Shown here piece by piece: positions 5,689-37,910 of a stretch of DNA of 64,000 nt. The stretch is from a virus: IMG/VR virus record IMGVR_UViG_3300031673_008942, positions 32,001 to 96,000 of that record, one strand, 5' to 3'. Within the stretch, counting starts at the first letter, position 1. Each line of letters opens with the position of its first letter. A model generated the notes under the pieces. The model was not told the origin of the DNA and made no database searches. It was given only the letters and a program-made list of their open reading frames with translations. The translations under genes were made by a program, and so were the position numbers.

Positions 5689-6250
5689 TCCCTCAAATAT
5701 TATAAATACAGTTTTAGAATTGCTTGGAAGCAATGAGCTTCAGATAAATCAATGTGTTCAAGTTTATCAGCCGAGTCGCACTCTGGTTGTATTTAAGGGG
5801 ATGCGTAATGTATTGCCTGCGGATGCTTTCCCTAGTTTGGAGATTGAGCCTACGAATGCCTCAAATCAATGGGCAACAACCAGGGCGCAGCGACCCACTT
5901 ACAATTTCAAATTTACGCTTACGGTTCAAAATTCAAATGAGCAATATGGGGTGGAGTATATTGCTACAATTGCCACAATTTTAGTAGAAATCCTTACGAG
6001 CCCTCAAAATCTCCAGATGAAAGTTCTTGGAGAGACCAAATGGACTCCAAATGACGGCTTGGTGGATACTTTTATTCTTGATAGTTTAGTGCAAGATGTT
6101 ACCTACGATGCCTTTAAGGATGGCAGTTTGCGTACTGCTGAGTTTAATTGGTTTGCGACGATTAATGAAAGTTATCCAGAGAGTATGTGGTTGGGAAGTT
6201 TTGGGAATGCTAATGAGCCAACCATTCTCTTGCCTAAGATTATCGAGTAG
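5678..6250 (+). CDS. Probable tail terminator / tail-completion protein
   Basis: N-terminal helix, FPSLEIEP, beta-strand/helix pattern and position before the tube genes. Confidence 0.5.
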   Translation: MYTNPSNIINTVLELLGSNELQINQCVQVYQPSRTLVVFKGMRNVLPADAFPSLEIEPTNASNQWATTRAQRPTYNFKFTLTVQNSNEQYGVEYIATIATILVEILTSPQNLQMKVLGETKWTPNDGLVDTFILDSLVQDVTYDAFKDGSLRTAEFNWFATINESYPESMWLGSFGNANEPTILLPKIIE

Positions 6251-6298
6251 TGAATTTTCACATTTTTTTTATATATCCTATTTATTTAAGAGGTTTTT

Positions 6299-6574
6299 AT
6301 GGATTTGGTCAAAGTTGATGAAGCGGTAAGCCTTCTATTAGGCGAAGATTTGAATGATAAGTATGTTGATTCGGTTGATGTCGGAGAGATTCCTTATCAG
6401 TCCAATTTGGCTTCCTTGAAGAATTTTGATATTCGAAATGATGCAGAGAAGGGCGAGAAAGAGTTAAAAAGAGCCATCTCAGGAATAGATGAGTGGATAA
6501 AAGCATTGGAGATTTACAGAAATGCCGCAAAAGAAGTCGCTAAAAAAGGAACTGCCGCCTTACGCTCGGCTTAA
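6299..6574 (+). CDS. Hypothetical helical protein
   Basis: GAGGT RBS after an AT-rich intergenic gap; 91 aa. Confidence 0.6.
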   Translation: MDLVKVDEAVSLLLGEDLNDKYVDSVDVGEIPYQSNLASLKNFDIRNDAEKGEKELKRAISGIDEWIKALEIYRNAAKEVAKKGTAALRSA

Positions 6575-6812
6575 AACGGTTCCTGCTTTGAAGAAGGTGG
6601 CGACTAATATGGCCTTGATGCATAAGTCATCGACGGAACTGAAACATTTGGAGACCGATTTTATAAAGTATGATATGAGCGATGAAGAGCTTGAAGTTGC
6701 AATGGATGATATGGCTTATTTTGCGGTTGAAGGAGCAAAGAATGCGGATTTGGCCATTGATAAATTGAAGGCTGTTCAAAATAAGATGAAGAGCTATTTG
6801 AAGGATTTATAA
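6522..6812 (+). CDS. Hypothetical helical protein; start uncertain (possibly 6609, or continuous with the previous ORF by frameshift)
   Basis: Its stop is coupled to the next ATG (TAATG at 6810-6814); fills the gap in the operon. Confidence 0.5.
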   Translation: MPQKKSLKKELPPYARLKTVPALKKVATNMALMHKSSTELKHLETDFIKYDMSDEELEVAMDDMAYFAVEGAKNADLAIDKLKAVQNKMKSYLKDL

Positions 6813-7609
6813 TGTCATTAGTAAGTACTTCAGTTTTAATAGGAATTGCTGATAGGGCTGCCTCTCAGGTTGAATTGATAAAGACAGCTTTAGATGATTC
6901 CACTGCCACAGGTGGCGGAGATTATGTGACAAGAGTAACGGATACGGATAATCCAGATTTGGAAATTCCGACAGAAGGCGAATATGAGATTGTTGACGAG
7001 GATTTTACTTTGTGTATGGCACTAAAATACGGAACTCAGTTATCACGAATTGTGACTGGAATGTTGGCTCATTTTAATCGTAAAGATTCAGGTGGACAAC
7101 CTCTTCAGCAGGGTGGTTGGGATGGATATTGCCAAAATGAAGATATTCGTATGAGTTGGTATTTTAGTCAGTTGTTCTTTTGTACGCAAAGTTATTACAT
7201 GTTGGCGAATGATGTGTTTTCAGAATCAGTGGATGTTTTCGGGACTGTAGAACTTATTGGTGGTCCTGCTATAGATTTTACAAATGGTATAAATTACGGA
7301 AATGGTTCAATCAATAATCCGGCCAACGGTCAATATTATGCTGCTACTCAATTAAAAATTGTAGTGACATCTATGGGCGGTACAGATTTGGATTTGAGAT
7401 TGTCGGTTAAGGATATTAATGACTTGCCTACAACCATAGATGTCACTATTAGCGGAGGGTCCTCAGTAGGGACAGAAATCCCAGTCGGTACATCTTCGGA
7501 TAGATTCTTAGATGTGACAAACGTTTCGTTTGTTCCTTTTGGTTCCTTTGGAACTCTTGGGGATGAGGTAACAATTCAAAATTTAAAAGAAAGACAAATT
7601 TCTTTATAA
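6812..7609 (+). CDS. Putative virion structural (tail-associated) protein
   Basis: 265 aa, acidic, Gly/Thr/Ser-rich beta C-terminus; directly upstream of the tube gene. Confidence 0.55.
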   Translation: MSLVSTSVLIGIADRAASQVELIKTALDDSTATGGGDYVTRVTDTDNPDLEIPTEGEYEIVDEDFTLCMALKYGTQLSRIVTGMLAHFNRKDSGGQPLQQGGWDGYCQNEDIRMSWYFSQLFFCTQSYYMLANDVFSESVDVFGTVELIGGPAIDFTNGINYGNGSINNPANGQYYAATQLKIVVTSMGGTDLDLRLSVKDINDLPTTIDVTISGGSSVGTEIPVGTSSDRFLDVTNVSFVPFGSFGTLGDEVTIQNLKERQISL

Positions 7610-30892: not shown

Positions 30893-31840
30893 ATGTCAGA
30901 ACATGTATTGATAACACACCAAAATATTGGTGACTCTTTTAGTGGGGTTTATTATATTGAGCAATTACACATCAGAGAAACTACTGGTGGAAAAGATTTT
31001 ACCGAGCTCATATTGAGAGATAAGAGTGGTTCCCGAAGTGTTAAGTACTGGGGCGTTGTGGGTGGATTGGCCAAGGGTGACTGGGGATTTGTAAGTGCCA
31101 GAGTAGAAGAATATATGGGTGGCCCAAGTATTATTGCTAAGAATTTGGAGAAGGAAGATGCTCCTTCGGATTTGTCAGCGTATGTCCCTGTGTCAGAAGA
31201 CCATGATAAGAATCTTGAAAAGTTTTCTAAGCTAATTGAGGAACTTCGTAAATTGTGTTCGGAGGTTGGTGATAATACGCCACTTATAATTGTGGAGTCT
31301 ATATTTACTGATAAGTTCAGGGCTCAGTTTTGTGATGCCCCTGGCGGTTATGGGTTCTATGGTTGCAAGGGAGGAGCCTTGGCTCGGACGGTTCGAGTTG
31401 GCATGAGTGTGAGATTTTTAAGTGGAAATTATAAGTTGTCTCCTTTGGATAAGGCTATCGCTGTAGCCTCTGCTCTGCTTTATTCTATTGGAGCAGCAGA
31501 GGTTTTCCATATGAAAGATTGTATGCCTGATGAAAAGACTTATGGTGCTCTTTTAGGGGTAGAGGGATATACTAACTCCCGTCTATTATCCGTCTTTAGA
31601 AAATTGGTAAAAGGAGGCGAGGCAGATAAAGACAGTGGCATGCGTGTTTTACATGCTGTTGCATCGGCTCGTGAGACTGCGGTTAAGGCAATGACTAAAG
31701 AAGGAATTATCTTGTCAATGGCAAATCGCATGGATGAAGAGGTTTCAAATGCCTTGAATTTTATTGATGATGATATTAACGAGGAAGAGGACTTTACCGC
31801 TTTCGACCCAAAGAGTAAGCGTCGATACCTCAAGGTATGA
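30893..31840 (+). CDS. YhaM/Cbf1-like OB-fold + HD-domain protein with degenerate metal-binding residues
   Basis: LRDKSG...KYW OB fold; APGG..FY...GGALART and ALLYSIG where YhaM has PAA..HH...GGLLxHT and LLHDIGK. Confidence 0.7.
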   Translation: MSEHVLITHQNIGDSFSGVYYIEQLHIRETTGGKDFTELILRDKSGSRSVKYWGVVGGLAKGDWGFVSARVEEYMGGPSIIAKNLEKEDAPSDLSAYVPVSEDHDKNLEKFSKLIEELRKLCSEVGDNTPLIIVESIFTDKFRAQFCDAPGGYGFYGCKGGALARTVRVGMSVRFLSGNYKLSPLDKAIAVASALLYSIGAAEVFHMKDCMPDEKTYGALLGVEGYTNSRLLSVFRKLVKGGEADKDSGMRVLHAVASARETAVKAMTKEGIILSMANRMDEEVSNALNFIDDDINEEEDFTAFDPKSKRRYLKV

Positions 31841-32943
31841 GTCTTAGCGAACAAGAAATTGCTCGTTACAAAGACATAGAGTGGTTGATGCCTCATGTGG
31901 ACGTGGAGGATGTTCTAGACCGCTTGGGTGTTGAGCATGGACATGAGCGAAATAGCGAAATAATGGCCTTTTGCCCTGACCATGAACATCATACAGGAAA
32001 TTCTCCAAGTCATCCTAAATGGGGTTTAAATACTGATACGGGAAAGACCTATTGCTTTACTGAAGACCGAGGTAGTAATTTGGTTTTCACGATTTGTAGA
32101 GTATTGGATTGTGGGGCTGATGCTGCGGTAAGTTTTATGACTGGTAGCGATGTGACGAATCTAAGGGCTTCTGGTTTGAAGGGTAGAATATCCAAGCTTA
32201 GGCGTAAAGATGTAAAAAAGAGAAATGCTGAAGAGCCAGGCGAGGTATGGGGGTTGGATAAGATTCAAAAGGATTTGAACAATCGTCCAGTTTCAGACCA
32301 TTTATATGATTTTTTCATGCAACCTCCAGGGAAGCCTCCAAGCAATATTGTACAGAATACCGTGGATAGGTTTGGGGTTTTTGAGAGGAGGTGGGGATAT
32401 TATACTAATCGAGCTATCATTCCTTTTTATATGCATGGAAAAATTATCGGTTTTTGTGCTATTGATATGCTTGGGGAGAGGGAGTGGGTGCAGATGCATC
32501 CATTGAAGGACTCATCAGATTATAGGAAGGTATTGTATCCGCAAAATTTCAAATCAAACGAGTGTCTGTTTAATTATGATAATTGTGAAAAAGGGTCGAA
32601 GATTATATTGACTGAGGGGGCACGAGAGGTGATGAAGTTGAGCCAGGAGGGCTTCCCTAATAGCTTGGCAGTGTTGGGTTCTGGTCTGGGAAGCAGTGAC
32701 CCATTGGAGGTTGGGGACTCACAGTTGAGACTTCTGGCAAAATTGGACCCAGAGGAAATCATTTTAATGTTTGACGGTGACAAGGCAGGATATAAAGCTA
32801 CTGAAAAACTGGAGAAAAATCTATCGAGATTGTTTCCAGTTCGTCCGTGTAAATTGTTAAACGATACAGACCCGAAGATGCTTTGTCGTGATGAAATAAA
32901 AAAGATAATAAAAAGTTTTAAATTATCTTGTAATGATTTTTGA
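31837..32943 (+). CDS. dnaG: DNA primase (DnaG-type, Zn finger + TOPRIM)
   Basis: CPDH...YCF zinc-binding region, RAIIPF, LFNYD, TEG, FDGDKAG. Confidence 0.88.
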   Translation: MSLSEQEIARYKDIEWLMPHVDVEDVLDRLGVEHGHERNSEIMAFCPDHEHHTGNSPSHPKWGLNTDTGKTYCFTEDRGSNLVFTICRVLDCGADAAVSFMTGSDVTNLRASGLKGRISKLRRKDVKKRNAEEPGEVWGLDKIQKDLNNRPVSDHLYDFFMQPPGKPPSNIVQNTVDRFGVFERRWGYYTNRAIIPFYMHGKIIGFCAIDMLGEREWVQMHPLKDSSDYRKVLYPQNFKSNECLFNYDNCEKGSKIILTEGAREVMKLSQEGFPNSLAVLGSGLGSSDPLEVGDSQLRLLAKLDPEEIILMFDGDKAGYKATEKLEKNLSRLFPVRPCKLLNDTDPKMLCRDEIKKIIKSFKLSCNDF

Positions 32944-33004: not shown

Positions 33005-33022
33005 GCCCGTTTTGGGCTTTTT
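33005..33022 (+). terminator. Possible short intrinsic terminator
   Basis: GCCC-GTTTT-GGGC followed by TTTTT in the intergenic gap. Confidence 0.4.
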
Positions 33023-33096: not shown

Positions 33097-33918
33097 ATGG
33101 CTTCAGTTCTATTGGATGCGTATTGTGTCCAAAATACCCGTGTTATAAAGCGTTTTCCAGTGGTTGATGCTTTAAGTTTCATTCGATTAAAAAGTTATTT
33201 TACGAGTGAGTCCCCCGTCAAACGAGTTGCAGTATCTTCTGTAGAAGAAGTTCCAGATATCCTGCATAGATTCCCCATAACCCAAGAGCTTGCGGCTGAT
33301 ATTATCGCTAATGGTTTACCGTGTGGTATGGAGTCATCGAGCTATCCCAAGGAAGAATATATTATGGATGGCTTGTATCATAGTATATCAGCAATGGTAT
33401 ACAAATTATGTAGAAAATATACGGCGACTTGTACAACTGACCTTGATGATTTGGCTCATGAGTGTTTGCATCGCATTTTTGCAAAGATTGGTCAGTTTAA
33501 TAAAGATAAGGGGAAATTCACCACTTGGAGTTATCGGGTCTGCTTAAGTGTTTTGGCTCGTCGTTATCATAATGATAAGAAACGAAGTGACCGTTTTATT
33601 TCTGATGGGGAGGATGAGGAAAAGAATGAAAGGATGAGGAGTGGTATTGTCAGAGAGAAGGGAGTATCAGTTCTTAATGGTGAGATGAGGGAAGTTGTAC
33701 GTAAGCTTTTGCGTGAATACCCTGAGAAGGCTGAGTTCGTTGAGGAATTATTTGGAAATATCAATAGTAATGACCATTTATTTCCTGTTTCGGTGTGCAT
33801 TAGTGATTCTGCACGGAAGCTAGGTATAGAATATGTGGAAGCCTATACGTTTTTTAAGCGTGTCGTTCGTCCAATTTTTAAAGAATATTTTGAATACAGA
33901 GAGGTAACAAATGTCTGA
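33097..33918 (+). CDS. Sigma-70 region-2-containing transcription factor (phage sigma-like)
   Basis: DDLAHECLHRIFAKIGQFNKDKGKFTTWSYRVC matches sigma region 2; C-terminal HTH-like ISDSARKLGI. Confidence 0.7.
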   Translation: MASVLLDAYCVQNTRVIKRFPVVDALSFIRLKSYFTSESPVKRVAVSSVEEVPDILHRFPITQELAADIIANGLPCGMESSSYPKEEYIMDGLYHSISAMVYKLCRKYTATCTTDLDDLAHECLHRIFAKIGQFNKDKGKFTTWSYRVCLSVLARRYHNDKKRSDRFISDGEDEEKNERMRSGIVREKGVSVLNGEMREVVRKLLREYPEKAEFVEELFGNINSNDHLFPVSVCISDSARKLGIEYVEAYTFFKRVVRPIFKEYFEYREVTNV

Positions 33919-34342
33919 TATGAAGATGCATAGCCCAACCCAGGCTATAAAAATGGGTAGTTGTTTTGGTCACTACGATGAAAATGATAAAATTTGTGGT
34001 AAGTGTGTGGTAAACGGGGTGAGTTTCCCTTCTCCATATTCATGTAATGTTGCTACTGCGAAGAGGCAAAAGGCAGAAAGTGCGGGTGTTGAAGACCTTG
34101 AGGACATTGATGCATGGGATTATTTGATGAAGTCCCTTCAGGGTAGGTTGGATTTATCAATTACTAAAAATGATAAAGCTATCAGTTATGATTTTGCAGC
34201 TGATGATGGAACTCACAAAATTCGTGTTATTTCCATGATAGGTTCTGAAAGGGTAATGATAATGGCATCTGGCTTCAAGGAGAAGTATGAGAAGTTAGAG
34301 TCATTGGAATTTGTGGAGAATATTTTAAAGAAATTGCTATGA
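33911..34342 (+). CDS. Hypothetical protein with N-terminal Cys4 motif
   Basis: GAGGT RBS; CFGHYDENDKICGKC-x11-C. Confidence 0.65.
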   Translation: MSDMKMHSPTQAIKMGSCFGHYDENDKICGKCVVNGVSFPSPYSCNVATAKRQKAESAGVEDLEDIDAWDYLMKSLQGRLDLSITKNDKAISYDFAADDGTHKIRVISMIGSERVMIMASGFKEKYEKLESLEFVENILKKLL

Positions 34343-35253
34343 GGACTGTTAATTATCCTTATTTCCAACCTTCATTTGCAAACTTTAATAAAGCCCAGAT
34401 AGCCGTTGTTCCTTATTTTGATGAGGATGTTAATTTGGTTGTGTCTTTTCCCACTGCGGTGGGCAAGACTGTTATCGCAGAATGTTGTTTTGGATACCAT
34501 TTATCTACAGAGAAGGATAGTCGAGTAGTATATGTCTCTCCTCTTCGAAGGCTTACTTCTGAAAAATATGAGAATTGGAGTTCTGAGTCACAGTTTTGTG
34601 ATTATGGAGTAATGCAGAGTACTGGAGAAGACCCTGCTCCCATGAAAGACTTTGAAAATTCCAGAATATCTTTACTTACGAGTGAGTCTTTTGATTCAAA
34701 AACCAGAGTAAAAACATATCGTGAATGGTTAAAGGGTGTTGCATGTGTGGTTATTGATGAGGCTCATTTGATAGGACATGAGAAGAGGGGAGGTGCTGTT
34801 GAGAATGCTTTAATGCGTTTTACTTCCATAAATACTACTGCACGATTAATTTTATTATCAGCTACTATGAGTAACTCAATGGAGATTGCTAAATGGATAA
34901 AATCTCTTAATGGCAAAGAAACAAAGCATATTAAGAGTGACTGGCGACCGGTGAAGATAAACCGGGAGTTTTATGAAATACCGGATGGTAACGAGTCAAA
35001 GATAAGAGCCGTTGTCGCTCATCTTAAAAAGAGCAATTTTACAGGAAAGACGATTGTTTTTGTTCATTCTAAGGCAGTTGGAAAAGAGATTGTGAATAGG
35101 TTAAGTAAAGAAAGAATAAAATCGGCTTTTCATAATTCTGGTTTAAATAAGAGAAAGCGAGCCGAAATTGAAAAAGAATTTGATGATGCGTATTCAGAAT
35201 TGAATGTACTGGTTAGTACGAGCACTCTTGGAGCAGGAGTTAATATAGGATGA
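34339..35253 (+). CDS. Ski2/Hel308-like SF2 helicase, N-terminal part (motifs Q to V)
   Basis: FNKAQ, PTAVGKT, SPLRRL, DEAH, LSAT, WRPV, FVHSK, FHNSGL, STSTLGAGVN then stop. Confidence 0.88.
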   Translation: MRTVNYPYFQPSFANFNKAQIAVVPYFDEDVNLVVSFPTAVGKTVIAECCFGYHLSTEKDSRVVYVSPLRRLTSEKYENWSSESQFCDYGVMQSTGEDPAPMKDFENSRISLLTSESFDSKTRVKTYREWLKGVACVVIDEAHLIGHEKRGGAVENALMRFTSINTTARLILLSATMSNSMEIAKWIKSLNGKETKHIKSDWRPVKINREFYEIPDGNESKIRAVVAHLKKSNFTGKTIVFVHSKAVGKEIVNRLSKERIKSAFHNSGLNKRKRAEIEKEFDDAYSELNVLVSTSTLGAGVNIG

Positions 35254-35828
35254 ATGATTTAGACATATTAAAAAAAGAATGTTTGGGTTGTACTAAATGT
35301 GCAATTGGGGGTGTTCATTTGGATAATGGTCTTTCTAATGTTTTTTCCAATATGAATATTGATGCTGATATTATGGTAGTGGGTCAGAATCCAGGTTCTG
35401 ATGAGGTTAAAGGTGCTGAACCTTTTATTGGTGATAGTGGTAAGTTTTTTGATAAAGTAATGTTGGAAGTTTGTGGCCTTTCAAGAGATGATTTTTATAT
35501 TTCTAATGTAGTAAGATGCTACACTCCTGGAAATAGGAAGCCTTATCAAAATGAGATAGATTCCTGTAGGGATTTCCTTGATAAAGAGATTGAATTAGTT
35601 AAGCCCAAGTTCATTATAGGTCTTGGAAGTTTTGCTTTTAAGCAATTAACTGGAATGAGCGGTATTATGAAGCATCATGGAGAATTGGTATTCTCTATTC
35701 GATACAAAGTTAATGTTATTCCCTTGTTACATCCAAGTCCTTTGAATATTCAAAAGGGTGACTGTTTAGGAATGTTCTATGATGATTTAGAGAAGGTCAA
35801 ATCATATTTGGAGAGTCTAGATGGCTGA
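35250..35828 (+). CDS. udg: Uracil-DNA glycosylase family 4 (Fe-S type)
   Basis: CTKC, VGQNPG, PFIG, NVVRC..PGNRKP...C, LLHPS. Confidence 0.9.
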   Translation: MNDLDILKKECLGCTKCAIGGVHLDNGLSNVFSNMNIDADIMVVGQNPGSDEVKGAEPFIGDSGKFFDKVMLEVCGLSRDDFYISNVVRCYTPGNRKPYQNEIDSCRDFLDKEIELVKPKFIIGLGSFAFKQLTGMSGIMKHHGELVFSIRYKVNVIPLLHPSPLNIQKGDCLGMFYDDLEKVKSYLESLDG

Positions 35829-36897
35829 CCGAGTTATTATTACTGGTTCTCGGAGGGGAAACGAGGAGGTAACATTGATAGAGCTTGGACAGATGATAGG
35901 TCGAGCAGGTAGGGACCAATTTGGTGGTGATGCATATGTAGATATTTTCCTTGAAAGGTGTGATTTCCAAAGAGTTGTTTCTCAGATAGATGATAAAAAT
36001 AGCTTTCTGGTAAATTCTTCTCTGACTGATGAATCTTTGCTGTTTCATATTTTACCGGATATTAATTCTGGAAAAGTGAGGGATGTAAAAACTGCTAAGG
36101 AATGGTTTAAAAGAAGTTTTTTCTATTACCAGAAGGGTGAAAGGTTGGATATTGAAGATTCCTTGGATGCTTTGGAGAAGATGGGAGCAATATATTTAGA
36201 GAATGGATATCTTACAGCTACCGAGGTGGGAAATTTGTCGGCTCAGTATTACTACCATCCTGATGATATTATAAGTTGGAAGAATAATTTTACGGAATTG
36301 TTTGAGAGTTCCTTAGAGGATAATGACTTAGCCATTTCTTGGGCATTGGGAAATGTTTTATTCAGCTCTACTTATGGTAATTATGGTCAGGACTCGGATG
36401 TGGTAGAGGACTGTAAGGGAAGGATGCCGCCTGGCTTGTATATGCATTCAGGATGTGCTTCTACCATTACTTGTTGGTGGGGGGCTTTGGGTGGTGCTTC
36501 GATGGGGAAGATGCGGTCTTCTATGTTGGCATTGAGGGAGGATTATGGCCGATTGGGGAAAGTGCTTAGGGCATTAAATAAGAAGGTTGGGAAATGGGGT
36601 ATGGAAGACTTTTTTGATGACTTAGATTATAGGATTCGTCGCTCTATTCCTATAAGTTTGTTCCAGTTATGTAAAGATATTGGTCTCAGTAAGGGGAGGG
36701 CATCTTTTTTATATAATAGAGGCATCCGCTCAGTAGAGGATTTGGTATATAATATGGATGGATTAGAAGGCGAAATTGATGATGAATTTTATGAAAAATT
36801 GAAGAGAGCCAGTGAATTATCAGGAAAGGTTGATAAAGGATTGCGTGAGAGCGATGCGGGATGGAAGAGTCTCGGACTTGCACGTAACAAGGATTAG
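35821..36897 (+). CDS. Ski2/Hel308-like helicase, C-terminal part (motif VI, winged helix, ratchet, HhH)
   Basis: ADRVII...QMIGRAGR.QF, SSL, WF..SFFY, T.VG..SA.YY, GLSKGRA..LY..GIRS. Confidence 0.85.
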   Translation: MADRVIITGSRRGNEEVTLIELGQMIGRAGRDQFGGDAYVDIFLERCDFQRVVSQIDDKNSFLVNSSLTDESLLFHILPDINSGKVRDVKTAKEWFKRSFFYYQKGERLDIEDSLDALEKMGAIYLENGYLTATEVGNLSAQYYYHPDDIISWKNNFTELFESSLEDNDLAISWALGNVLFSSTYGNYGQDSDVVEDCKGRMPPGLYMHSGCASTITCWWGALGGASMGKMRSSMLALREDYGRLGKVLRALNKKVGKWGMEDFFDDLDYRIRRSIPISLFQLCKDIGLSKGRASFLYNRGIRSVEDLVYNMDGLEGEIDDEFYEKLKRASELSGKVDKGLRESDAGWKSLGLARNKD

Positions 36898-37261
36898 CAA
36901 ATGCGATAAGCCAATGAATGTTGAGTCGGTTGTTCCATTCTTGCAGGATGGAGACCCATATATTCGCCTTTGTGCTGCGAGAGTGGTGGCGGCTAAGGGA
37001 GATATGGAAGGCCTGATGAATATGGCAATGATTGAGGAGAATCGAAATACTTTATTAGAGGTGCTGAAGCTAATAACTAATAGTGATGATGCTGTGACTC
37101 ATTTGGTTAAGTTTTTGAAGTCTGAAGATACTCACTTACGTGAGGGGGCGATATCTATGTACCGTCGAATCGGAAGAGAAGACATGTTATTGGCTTTGGT
37201 CTTTAGCCATGATGAAGAATTAGCGAATAGGATAAAGAGTTATATTAATGAACGAGATTGA
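36812..37261 (+). CDS. HEAT-repeat protein
   Basis: VVPFLQDGDPYIRLCAARVV and LVKFLKSEDTHLREGAI. Confidence 0.7.
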   Translation: MNYQERLIKDCVRAMRDGRVSDLHVTRISKCDKPMNVESVVPFLQDGDPYIRLCAARVVAAKGDMEGLMNMAMIEENRNTLLEVLKLITNSDDAVTHLVKFLKSEDTHLREGAISMYRRIGREDMLLALVFSHDEELANRIKSYINERD

Positions 37262-37910
37262 TAAGATAGAAATACCTGAAGATAAGGTGGAGAGATTTTG
37301 GGTTTTGGTGCTTATGTTTGCTCAAGAGATGGGTATTGAAGACCACAAAGATGTTTATCATAATGTTGAGCTTTTGGGAAAGAGTGTGGAAAGACACATT
37401 GTTGAAAGGAATCTTCCTATTTCTCCTCAGAAGAAGGTGAGTCGTTCCAGGGCGACGTTTATTGCTATATTTAAGAAGAGGTATTTACAGCTTACAGATT
37501 GTGAGTATACCCGAATCATAACGGCCGCCGAAGGCAAACTTATAAATCAAATAAATAAAAGCCTCCGAGAGAGAGATTTTGATTGTAATGATTATTTAAG
37601 GTGGCTTTTTGAGGATTTTTTACCCGATAATAAGAGACTGTGTCCTCCATCTATTAAGCAGATATGTGCCAGATTTTATGTTGACAAATTTTTCTTTGAA
37701 TATAAAGACGAAGCGAAAGAGCGGAAGACGACCAAGTTGAAACAATCAGAATCTGAGGATTTGGCTAATAGGTGTAGAGCCTTGGTTCGTGGTCCTGCAC
37801 AGAAGATTAAGGATGAGATTCGTAAGGTAGTCTCTGATTATAAAGATGGAAAAATATTTTTAGAGGATTTGCGTAAAAAAGTTGAAACTTGGGAAGGAGA
37901 ATATAAATGA
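37248..37910 (+). CDS. Hypothetical replication-module protein
   Basis: 220-aa ORF overlapping both neighbours. Confidence 0.65.
   Translation: MNEIDKIEIPEDKVERFWVLVLMFAQEMGIEDHKDVYHNVELLGKSVERHIVERNLPISPQKKVSRSRATFIAIFKKRYLQLTDCEYTRIITAAEGKLINQINKSLRERDFDCNDYLRWLFEDFLPDNKRLCPPSIKQICARFYVDKFFFEYKDEAKERKTTKLKQSESEDLANRCRALVRGPAQKIKDEIRKVVSDYKDGKIFLEDLRKKVETWEGEYK

Follow-up and report, generated by a model that had tools for sequence, protein, structure and literature searches.

Split phage enzymes that were shown to reassemble and to work include NrdA of phage Aeh1 (PMC3045599) as well as gp43A/B of phage 25 and the topoisomerase of phage T4 (PMC2988022). In such intein-less genes in pieces (nrdA-a/mobE/nrdA-b of Aeromonas phage Aeh1, gp43A/seg/gp43B of Aeromonas phage 25, and topoisomerase genes 39/60 of T4; PMC3045599, PMC2988022, and PMC2677866), a conserved gene of DNA metabolism is cut at a critical region into two co-linear open reading frames (ORFs), which keep the original order, strand, and locus and enclose a foreign gene. 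According to a published model (Dassa et al. 2009, PMC2677866), invasion by an endonuclease fractures the gene and provides the downstream start codon. Fractured genes with split inteins, treated in the same work, come from metagenomic loci rich in phages; a gene for replication or repair is interrupted at its original site, a free-standing gene lies between the parts, Vsr-like homing endonucleases occur in such gaps, and the coding sequences overlap at the downstream junction. Here, we describe a viral DNA stretch of 64,000 nucleotides (positions 32,001 to 96,000 of IMG/VR record IMGVR_UViG_3300031673_008942; hereafter, the window), in which the gene of a Hel308-like helicase of superfamily 2 (SF2) is divided into two ORFs, helN and helC, with an ORF for a family-4 uracil-DNA glycosylase (UDG) between them. 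The products of helN and helC very probably constitute a two-chain helicase of the Hel308 type that is assembled by complementation of the second RecA domain (RecA2), the gene being an intein-less fractured gene that would derive from one ancestral insertion.

The window is part of a 113.6-kb record rated 34% complete, so that the phage genome should measure at least some 300 kb. The layout of three ORFs and the two overlaps reported in a first-pass annotation of the window are present to the base (Table 1). HelN comprises RecA1 and the first part of RecA2; as read from the sequence, it terminates with STSTLGAGVNIG directly before the stop codon, the last residues being GVNIG. HelC carries the remaining two main strands of RecA2 together with the helix of motif VI. 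Its C-terminal portion is of the Hel308 type and consists of a beta-hairpin-bearing region, an extended helical stretch, and, at the end, helices resembling a helix-hairpin-helix (HhH) domain. The break is situated inside the second RecA domain, as had been proposed, and the two parts of RecA2 are located on separate chains. A blastn search of the locus against GenBank phages gave no match. The closest GenBank phage, LR756511.1 (595 kb; locus L001), possesses a single intact helicase ORF of 675 amino acids, which reads TLAWGLNLPARRVVILG across the break point. From this continuous reading it follows that the window gene was cut cleanly; nothing is lost and only an initiator methionine is added, in agreement with the earlier remark that almost nothing is missing at the break.

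The same break point is found in a large number of relatives. Searching with helN retrieved more than 120 protein clusters of 48-82% identity and 298-320 amino acids, and all 35 aligned helN homologs terminate at TLGAGVN(I/L/V/M)(G/A) followed by at most a few residues. An exhaustive search with helC, covering 1.84 billion representatives, yielded 522 relatives. The best approximately 50 of them are 320-357 amino acids long, with residue 1 aligned to residue 1 of helC; about 64 of the 149 listed relatives are stand-alone proteins starting with M(A/S)D(R/H)V(I/V)(I/V) at the matching residue, and fused forms are encountered only below E ~1e-37. Among relatives longer than helN, some are intein-bearing N-halves ending with GVNIG, and the others are true single-chain helicases, none of which exceeds 45% identity. 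In the helN homologs P0121-P0126, inteins follow the GKT of motif I (around residue 45) and the DEAH of motif II (around residue 142), with the ends still reading GVNIG; the helN gene is evidently a repeated target of mobile elements.

Related IMG/VR loci were retrieved by an alignment-based scan, a single-sequence query having given none, and gene context is drawn from these loci and not from the P-numbered homologs. Seventeen loci of the split clade were fetched; three pairs represent the same phage, which leaves 14 distinct phages. Recurrence of the break point in many independent contigs, that is, in more than 100 independent protein clusters in addition to the 17 loci, is not a matter of chance and excludes mis-assembly, which the first-pass annotation had listed among the findings that would speak against a split helicase. 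The survey of related phages suggested there thus reveals a shared break point, with UDG as the usual but variable intervening gene.

Neither half alone accounts for a complete helicase motor. For helN, Pfam family PF00270 is matched with E 3e-24, PF00271 (Helicase_C) is matched at model positions 2-81 of 110 only, and Hel308 and Brr2 score best in NCBIfam and the PDB. For helC, no Pfam match was obtained; it aligns with the Hel308-type NCBIfam models PRK01172 (positions 342-492 of 674) and Hel308 (positions 630-690 of 704, the terminal HhH region) as well as with residues 340-487 and 613-663 of an archaeal Hel308 (PDB 9b15), residue 2 of helC being aligned to residue 340 of 9b15 ("ARRVIV") and residues 265-315 to its HhH domain. 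Both halves match phrog_6819 (645 positions), helN at positions 21-302 and helC at positions 322-462. Only if both chains are combined are all SF2 motifs present (Q, I, Ia, II DExH, III, IV, V, and VI). Residues G42, K43, D140, E141, H143, S174, A175, and T176 of helN are invariant in 35 homologs, and Q24, G27, R28, and R31 of motif VI are invariant across 16 helC proteins, which upholds the earlier claim that catalytic motifs are retained in both halves. Hence, the motor core is not one polypeptide; it is encoded by two ORFs, with the UDG gene between them and without a joining mechanism. The architecture of winged helix, ratchet (domain 4), and HhH (domain 5) known from Hel308 is present in helC, where individual domain names were assigned by homology to Hel308. 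The NCBIfam Hel308 equivalog cut-offs (887-1216 bits) are missed by helN (114.7-145.9 bits) and helC (34.8-56.1 bits), and likewise by the intact relative L001 (255 versus 887). The split enzyme is Hel308-like by motifs and fold and not an NCBIfam equivalog.

In a tree of the helN-equivalent region (104 rows; IQ-TREE; rooted with two distant Hel308-like proteins), all split rows (46 of 46) are contained in one clade, with a value of 97 in the Shimodaira-Hasegawa-like approximate likelihood ratio test (SH-aLRT) and with locus L025, from a 440-kb phage, as its deepest branch. One ancestral gene was cut into two co-linear ORFs, given that the intact outgroups read through and that the split forms make up one clade. 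The minimum number of state changes on the tree is two. The second change concerns P0127, a single-chain protein of 606 amino acids within the split clade, whose junction, GVNI-LSSNDREH-VVIVG, exceeds that of the ancestral intact form by about four residues. We read P0127 as a secondary re-fusion of both genes, in which the junction would have been left as a scar.

For the pair L010/L012, ratios of nonsynonymous to synonymous substitutions (dN/dS) are 0.052 for helN, 0.067 for the UDG gene, and 0.093 for helC; for the pair L014/L017, the value of helC is 0.063. In more distant pairs, synonymous sites are saturated (proportion of synonymous differences, pS, 0.7-0.9; of nonsynonymous differences, pN, 0.16-0.44). 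Pairwise distances of helN and helC co-vary (r 0.86, Mantel p 0.0005), the mean p-distance is 0.64 for helC, 0.50 for helN, and 0.49 for UDG, and the GC content of the split-clade loci ranges from 26% to 64%. Judged from these comparisons of sequence, the split has a single origin, is old, and is held under strong purifying selection. The faster evolution of helC and the failure of either half to attain the equivalog cut-offs might be taken as signs of a decaying pseudogene, or of halves that have acquired separate functions and no longer cooperate. This would be very improbable in the face of the strong purifying selection on both halves and the invariance of their catalytic residues. Further points against it are that the halves, with their co-varying distances, are always adjacent or nearly so, with order and strand unchanged; that HelN alone is devoid of motif VI and HelC alone of any ATP-binding motif; and that one lineage seems to have re-fused the halves into a normal Hel308 fold. 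A pseudogene is rejected on the dN/dS values of approximately 0.05-0.09 for helN, UDG, and helC, the opposite of the relaxed selection (dN/dS near 1) by which, according to the first-pass annotation, a working split enzyme would be refuted.

Folds were predicted for single chains, that is, for helC alone (AlphaFold) and for the natural re-fusion P0127. The model of helC (mean predicted local distance difference test score, pLDDT, 92.6; predicted template modeling score, pTM, 0.85) begins with a strand at residues 4-8 and two further, short stretches of strand; the helix of motif VI (19-26), a strand at 39-43, and a helix at 46-57 come next. Foldseek places it closest to Hel308 (9b15, 2p6r, 2va8), Hjm (2zj8), the helicase domain of Pol theta, and Brr2, with about 354 aligned columns and E 2.6e-11. 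It is Hel308-like, yet it opens with orphan strands of RecA2. Residues 347-358 form a tail of low confidence (pLDDT below 50); helC of the window is about 25 amino acids longer than that of its relatives. For P0127, a complete Hel308 fold is predicted (pLDDT 91.9, pTM 0.90), with a template modeling (TM) score of 0.77 against 9b15, 2p6r, and 2zj2. Its RecA2 sheet is composed of four strands from the N-part (206-212, 234-239, 259-262, and 286-290) and two from the C-part (306-311 and 338-344), and the loop that contains the junction (291-305), modelled with the lowest confidence of any internal part (pLDDT ~60), lies between two RecA2 strands. From this model it is concluded that the cut falls in a loop just after motif V, yet divides one beta-sheet and parts motifs I and II from motif VI.

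In the window, helN and helC share the same frame and the gap measures exactly 190 codons, which would conform with a single chain restored by removal of the UDG segment, the conceivable routes being an intron in the RNA, splicing of the protein, bypass during translation, and stop recoding. The first-pass annotation had offered splicing or bypass as its alternative; the probability of any such event is close to nil. Frame offsets of helC are 0, 1, and 2 in 5, 6, and 5 of 16 loci, respectively, and the gap length varies between 1 and 1879 nucleotides, so that the shared frame in the window is a coincidence to be expected in 1 of 3 cases. In the 570-nucleotide gap, 18 stop codons are present in the frame of helN and helC (9 TAG, 5 TGA, and 4 TAA), the helN stop codon itself differs between relatives, and an intact and selected UDG ORF, overlapping both neighbours, leaves no room for an intron core. 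A scan of positions 33800-37400 with Rfam at E <= 1 returned no match. Stop-codon recoding was rejected, as all three types of stop codons occur in the gap and a TAG lies three codons after the TGA of helN. Equally rejected were inteins and trans-splicing. No intein residues are found at the break, where the end of helN and the start of helC are helicase residues abutting in intact relatives, and Pfam detects no intein domain in helN or helC; since inteins are found elsewhere in the relatives (within UDG and, in helN, at motifs I and II), any at the break would have been detected. The previous statement that intein termini and homing endonucleases are absent is correct for the window, and an endonuclease gene is located in the gap of locus L008 only.

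The ORF in the gap is a UDG according to Pfam (PF03167, E 2.6e-32; 112 bits versus a cut-off of 24.3) and passes the family-4 model TIGR00758 (130 bits versus a cut-off of 125.3); its PDB matches comprise 4zbx (E 6e-27) and 1ui0 (E 6e-25). As in family-4 UDGs at large, the four cysteine ligands of the Fe-S cluster (C14, C17, C90, and C106) and motif B (HPSP; H161 and S163) are conserved (alignment A3). The enzyme had been annotated as an intact family-4 UDG coupled at both ends, and it is joined to either neighbour by overlapping stop and start codons. It differs from the family in motif A, for which GE(A/G)PG is canonical; GQNPG is found in 11 of 12 gap UDGs (window and 10 relatives) and GQSPG in the remaining one (L009). 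By comparison, the UDG of LR756511.1 (L032), which lies outside a helicase gap and 100 kb away from the intact helicase of that phage, reads GEAPG. The Gln-Asn pair at these positions is reminiscent of family 1 (GQDPY) and of families 2 and 3 (G-x-NPG). UDGs of the GQNPG type may represent a phage subfamily of their own, in which catalysis or specificity is changed.

Of the 17 loci, 15 have UDG in the gap, corresponding to 12 distinct phages. In L014 and L017, the halves are 14 and 1 nucleotides apart, respectively, without UDG, and none was found in the source record of L017 (202 kb, 62% complete). In L025, whose genome is complete (440,868 bp with terminal repeats, 26% GC), the slot contains an unrelated ORF of 122 amino acids (5834-6202) without a known family, and no family-4 UDG is detectable in the genome. 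Additional ORFs accompany UDG in several loci: one of about 83 amino acids is located 5' of UDG in L004 and L006, while 3' of UDG there are ORFs of 142 amino acids in L003, of 92 amino acids in L010, and of 92 and 131 amino acids in L012/L013. Neither Pfam nor PHROGs identified the small ORFs in the gaps of L003, L004, L006, L010, L012, and L025. In L008, the slot harbours a Zn-finger protein of 290 amino acids (5942-6814) between helN and UDG, with matches to HNH-endonuclease PHROGs of phages (phrog_1271, E 3e-18) and to a DUF559/Vsr-like nuclease domain (DUF559, E 9e-11); in general type, it corresponds to the Vsr-like homing endonucleases described by Dassa et al. (2009, PMC2677866). The gap UDG of L006 (6157-7812; 551 amino acids in all) is interrupted by a LAGLIDADG intein, and intein-bearing UDG relatives are further represented by P0344-P0346. 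Taken together, the gap is a slot of variable cargo, in which cargo genes and mobile elements have landed repeatedly.

Whether UDG is a constituent of the complex, as the first-pass annotation had considered possible, has to be weighed against this variability. An obligatory three-part repair machine of HelN, UDG, and HelC, with UDG as a structural or functional subunit, would conform with the prevalence of UDG in the gap and its overlap with both neighbours in the window, with a UDG divergence that equals that of helN (0.49 versus 0.50), with UDG distances that are correlated with the distances of either half (r 0.61 and 0.74, Mantel p <= 0.001), and with the low dN/dS of the UDG gene and the unusual motif A shared by the UDGs of the clade. 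Such a machine is unlikely, however. The phage of L025 has the split helicase without a detectable family-4 UDG, the halves are adjacent in L014 and L017, other genes sometimes separate UDG from either half, and linkage by itself would make the distances co-vary. Among the longer UDG relatives, no UDG-helicase fusions were encountered, but only intein-bearing UDGs and fusions of UDG with PolA. Since UDG is as diverged as helN and its distances co-vary, it is a long-resident, co-inherited tenant of the slot rather than a repeated recent arrival; the split helicase nevertheless persists without it.

The proposed two-chain enzyme would function as follows. HelN would contribute RecA1 and four strands of RecA2, including motifs I and II for ATP binding as well as motifs III to V, and HelC the last two main RecA2 strands, the arginines of motif VI, and the portion matching domains 3-5 of Hel308. 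By non-covalent complementation of the RecA2 sheet, motif VI of HelC would be brought to the ATP site on HelN. The main proposal of the first-pass annotation, that the halves act together in trans, is strongly supported, on comparative grounds, by the conserved break, the single origin, the purifying selection, and the retained motifs. The cut arose once, in the ancestor of this large phage clade, presumably when foreign DNA was inserted after the codons for motif V and brought with it a stop for helN and a fresh start for helC; a free-standing element of the homing-endonuclease type would be the most probable inserting agent. Since then, the slot would have held changing cargo, usually the long-resident family-4 UDG, sometimes small ORFs, an endonuclease gene, or nothing. 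A mobile-element origin is suggested by the clean cut, which added only a stop and a start, by the endonuclease of L008, and by the density of inteins in the helN gene and UDG.

Several observations weigh against the two-chain enzyme and the history outlined for it. The intact P0127 nests inside the split clade, on a long branch. The evidence for a mobile-element origin is circumstantial, as an endonuclease gene occurs in 1 of 17 gaps and the resident gene of the window is UDG, not a free-standing homing endonuclease. The presumed binding of HelN to HelC is deduced from comparative evidence and from single-chain models; as the halves, unlike those of Aeh1 NrdA, are devoid of added tails, their assembly must be based on the RecA2 interface alone.

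The genes around the split helicase are compiled in Table 1. The 4-nucleotide overlap at the end of helN is found identically in L007, L015, and L025, and the 8-nucleotide overlap at the helC start also in L005, L008, L009, and L012. No convincing promoter or terminator signal was recognized between the helN, UDG, and helC genes. The overlapping stops and starts probably hold these genes in one operon, with the effect of coupling their translation and keeping the halves near equimolar. Upstream, the presence of a Toprim primase gene (31837-32943) was confirmed with Pfam and PHROGs. Directly 3' of it, at 33005-33017, the sequence GCCCGTTTTGGGC could form a hairpin like that of a terminator, and a run of T comes after it; its position suggests that an operon reaching from a sigma-like ORF through the helicase genes begins near 33097. 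The small ORF with Cys motifs that immediately precedes helN has no family match in Pfam or PHROGs; weak but repeated tblastn matches to it were found directly upstream of helN in L002, L009, L010, L011, L014, L017, and L018, and its product may be a helicase partner. The next ORF 3' of helC is HEAT-like and shares 86 nucleotides with the end of helC, provided that it starts with the GTG at 36812. It always comes after helC in the split clade (L003-L018) and is missing from all loci with an intact helicase. Together with ORFs of 220 and 195 amino acids, it forms a syntenic module 3' of helC in the split clade, found in no intact-helicase locus.

Table 1. Split helicase genes and neighbouring features in the window (positions refer to the window)
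Feature	Position	Strand	Size	Remarks
helN, N-terminal helicase chain	34339..35253	+	304 aa	motifs Q, I (GKT), II (DEAH), III (SAT), IV, V
ATGA stop/start overlap of helN and UDG	35250..35253	+	4 nt	read directly from the sequence
Family-4 UDG in the gap	35250..35828	+	192 aa	PF03167, TIGR00758
UDG motif A, VVGQNPG	35376-35393	+	residues 43-48	alignment A3
Overlap ATGGCTGA of UDG stop and helC start	35821..35828	+	8 nt	read directly from the sequence
helC, C-terminal helicase chain	35821..36897	+	358 aa	N-terminus MADRVIITG; motif VI QMIGRAGR
Small Cys-motif ORF (CFGHY...CGKC)	33911..34342	+	143 aa	stop overlaps helN start (ATGA)
HEAT-like ORF	36812..37261	+	149 aa	PF13646, E 4.6e-6, just short of the cut-off

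In comparison with the described genes in pieces, the window shares the cut at a critical region of a conserved gene of DNA metabolism, the two co-linear ORFs in place with a foreign gene between them, and an insert that provides the upstream stop and the downstream start; by analogy, reassembly without splicing would be expected. Differences concern the host gene, which here encodes a Hel308-type SF2 helicase, and the resident insert, which is a UDG and not a homing endonuclease. Besides, the split is not confined to one phage; it is ancient and clade-wide (26-64% GC), and the cargo has been turned over many times. From the split-intein fractured genes the locus is set apart by the lack of N- and C-intein halves at the break, which makes trans-splicing impossible; the helicase reported in PMC2677866 is, moreover, the DnaB-like gp41 and not an SF2 enzyme. 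With archaeal Hel308/Hjm, Pol theta/HELQ, and Brr2 (2p6r, 9b15, 2va8, 2zj2, 5a9j, and 4f91), the enzyme has all SF2 motifs in common; helC matches the C-terminal portion of Hel308/Hjm, and P0127 the full-length enzyme with TM scores of 0.72-0.77. In contrast to this group, the phage helicase is encoded as two chains, with the cut separating motif V from motif VI, shows only about 20% identity to the solved structures, and lies in the context of a phage replication operon.

A limited literature search yielded no report of a phage in which a helicase of the Hel308 type, or of SF2 at large, is split. What is new is the SF2 helicase as host family, a resident that is not an endonuclease, the age and breadth of the split, the turnover of cargo, and one natural re-fusion; the phage genes in pieces would thereby be extended to an SF2 helicase. 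A further reading, which we consider improbable, is that the split persists for its usefulness and is more than tolerated. With motif VI on a chain of its own, helicase activity would depend on assembly and might be regulated by stoichiometry or by partners encoded in the slot or next to it. If this were true, the GQNPG-type UDG, the upstream Cys-motif ORF, and the downstream HEAT-like protein would be candidate regulators, and the split would amount to a modular helicase-glycosylase repair machine particular to this lineage of huge phages.

For annotation, the finding means that hundreds of metagenomic proteins of about 300 amino acids listed as "DEAD/DEAH helicase" and of about 330 amino acids listed as "hypothetical" would be the two halves of one enzyme. 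For the helicase family, it means that a RecA-like motor domain was cut between motifs V and VI, with the ATP site apart from the arginine motif, and yet would have been kept in this state for a very long time. The clade thus would offer a natural system for fragment complementation of a helicase motor, with built-in controls in the form of split loci with UDG, split loci without an insert, and the re-fusion.

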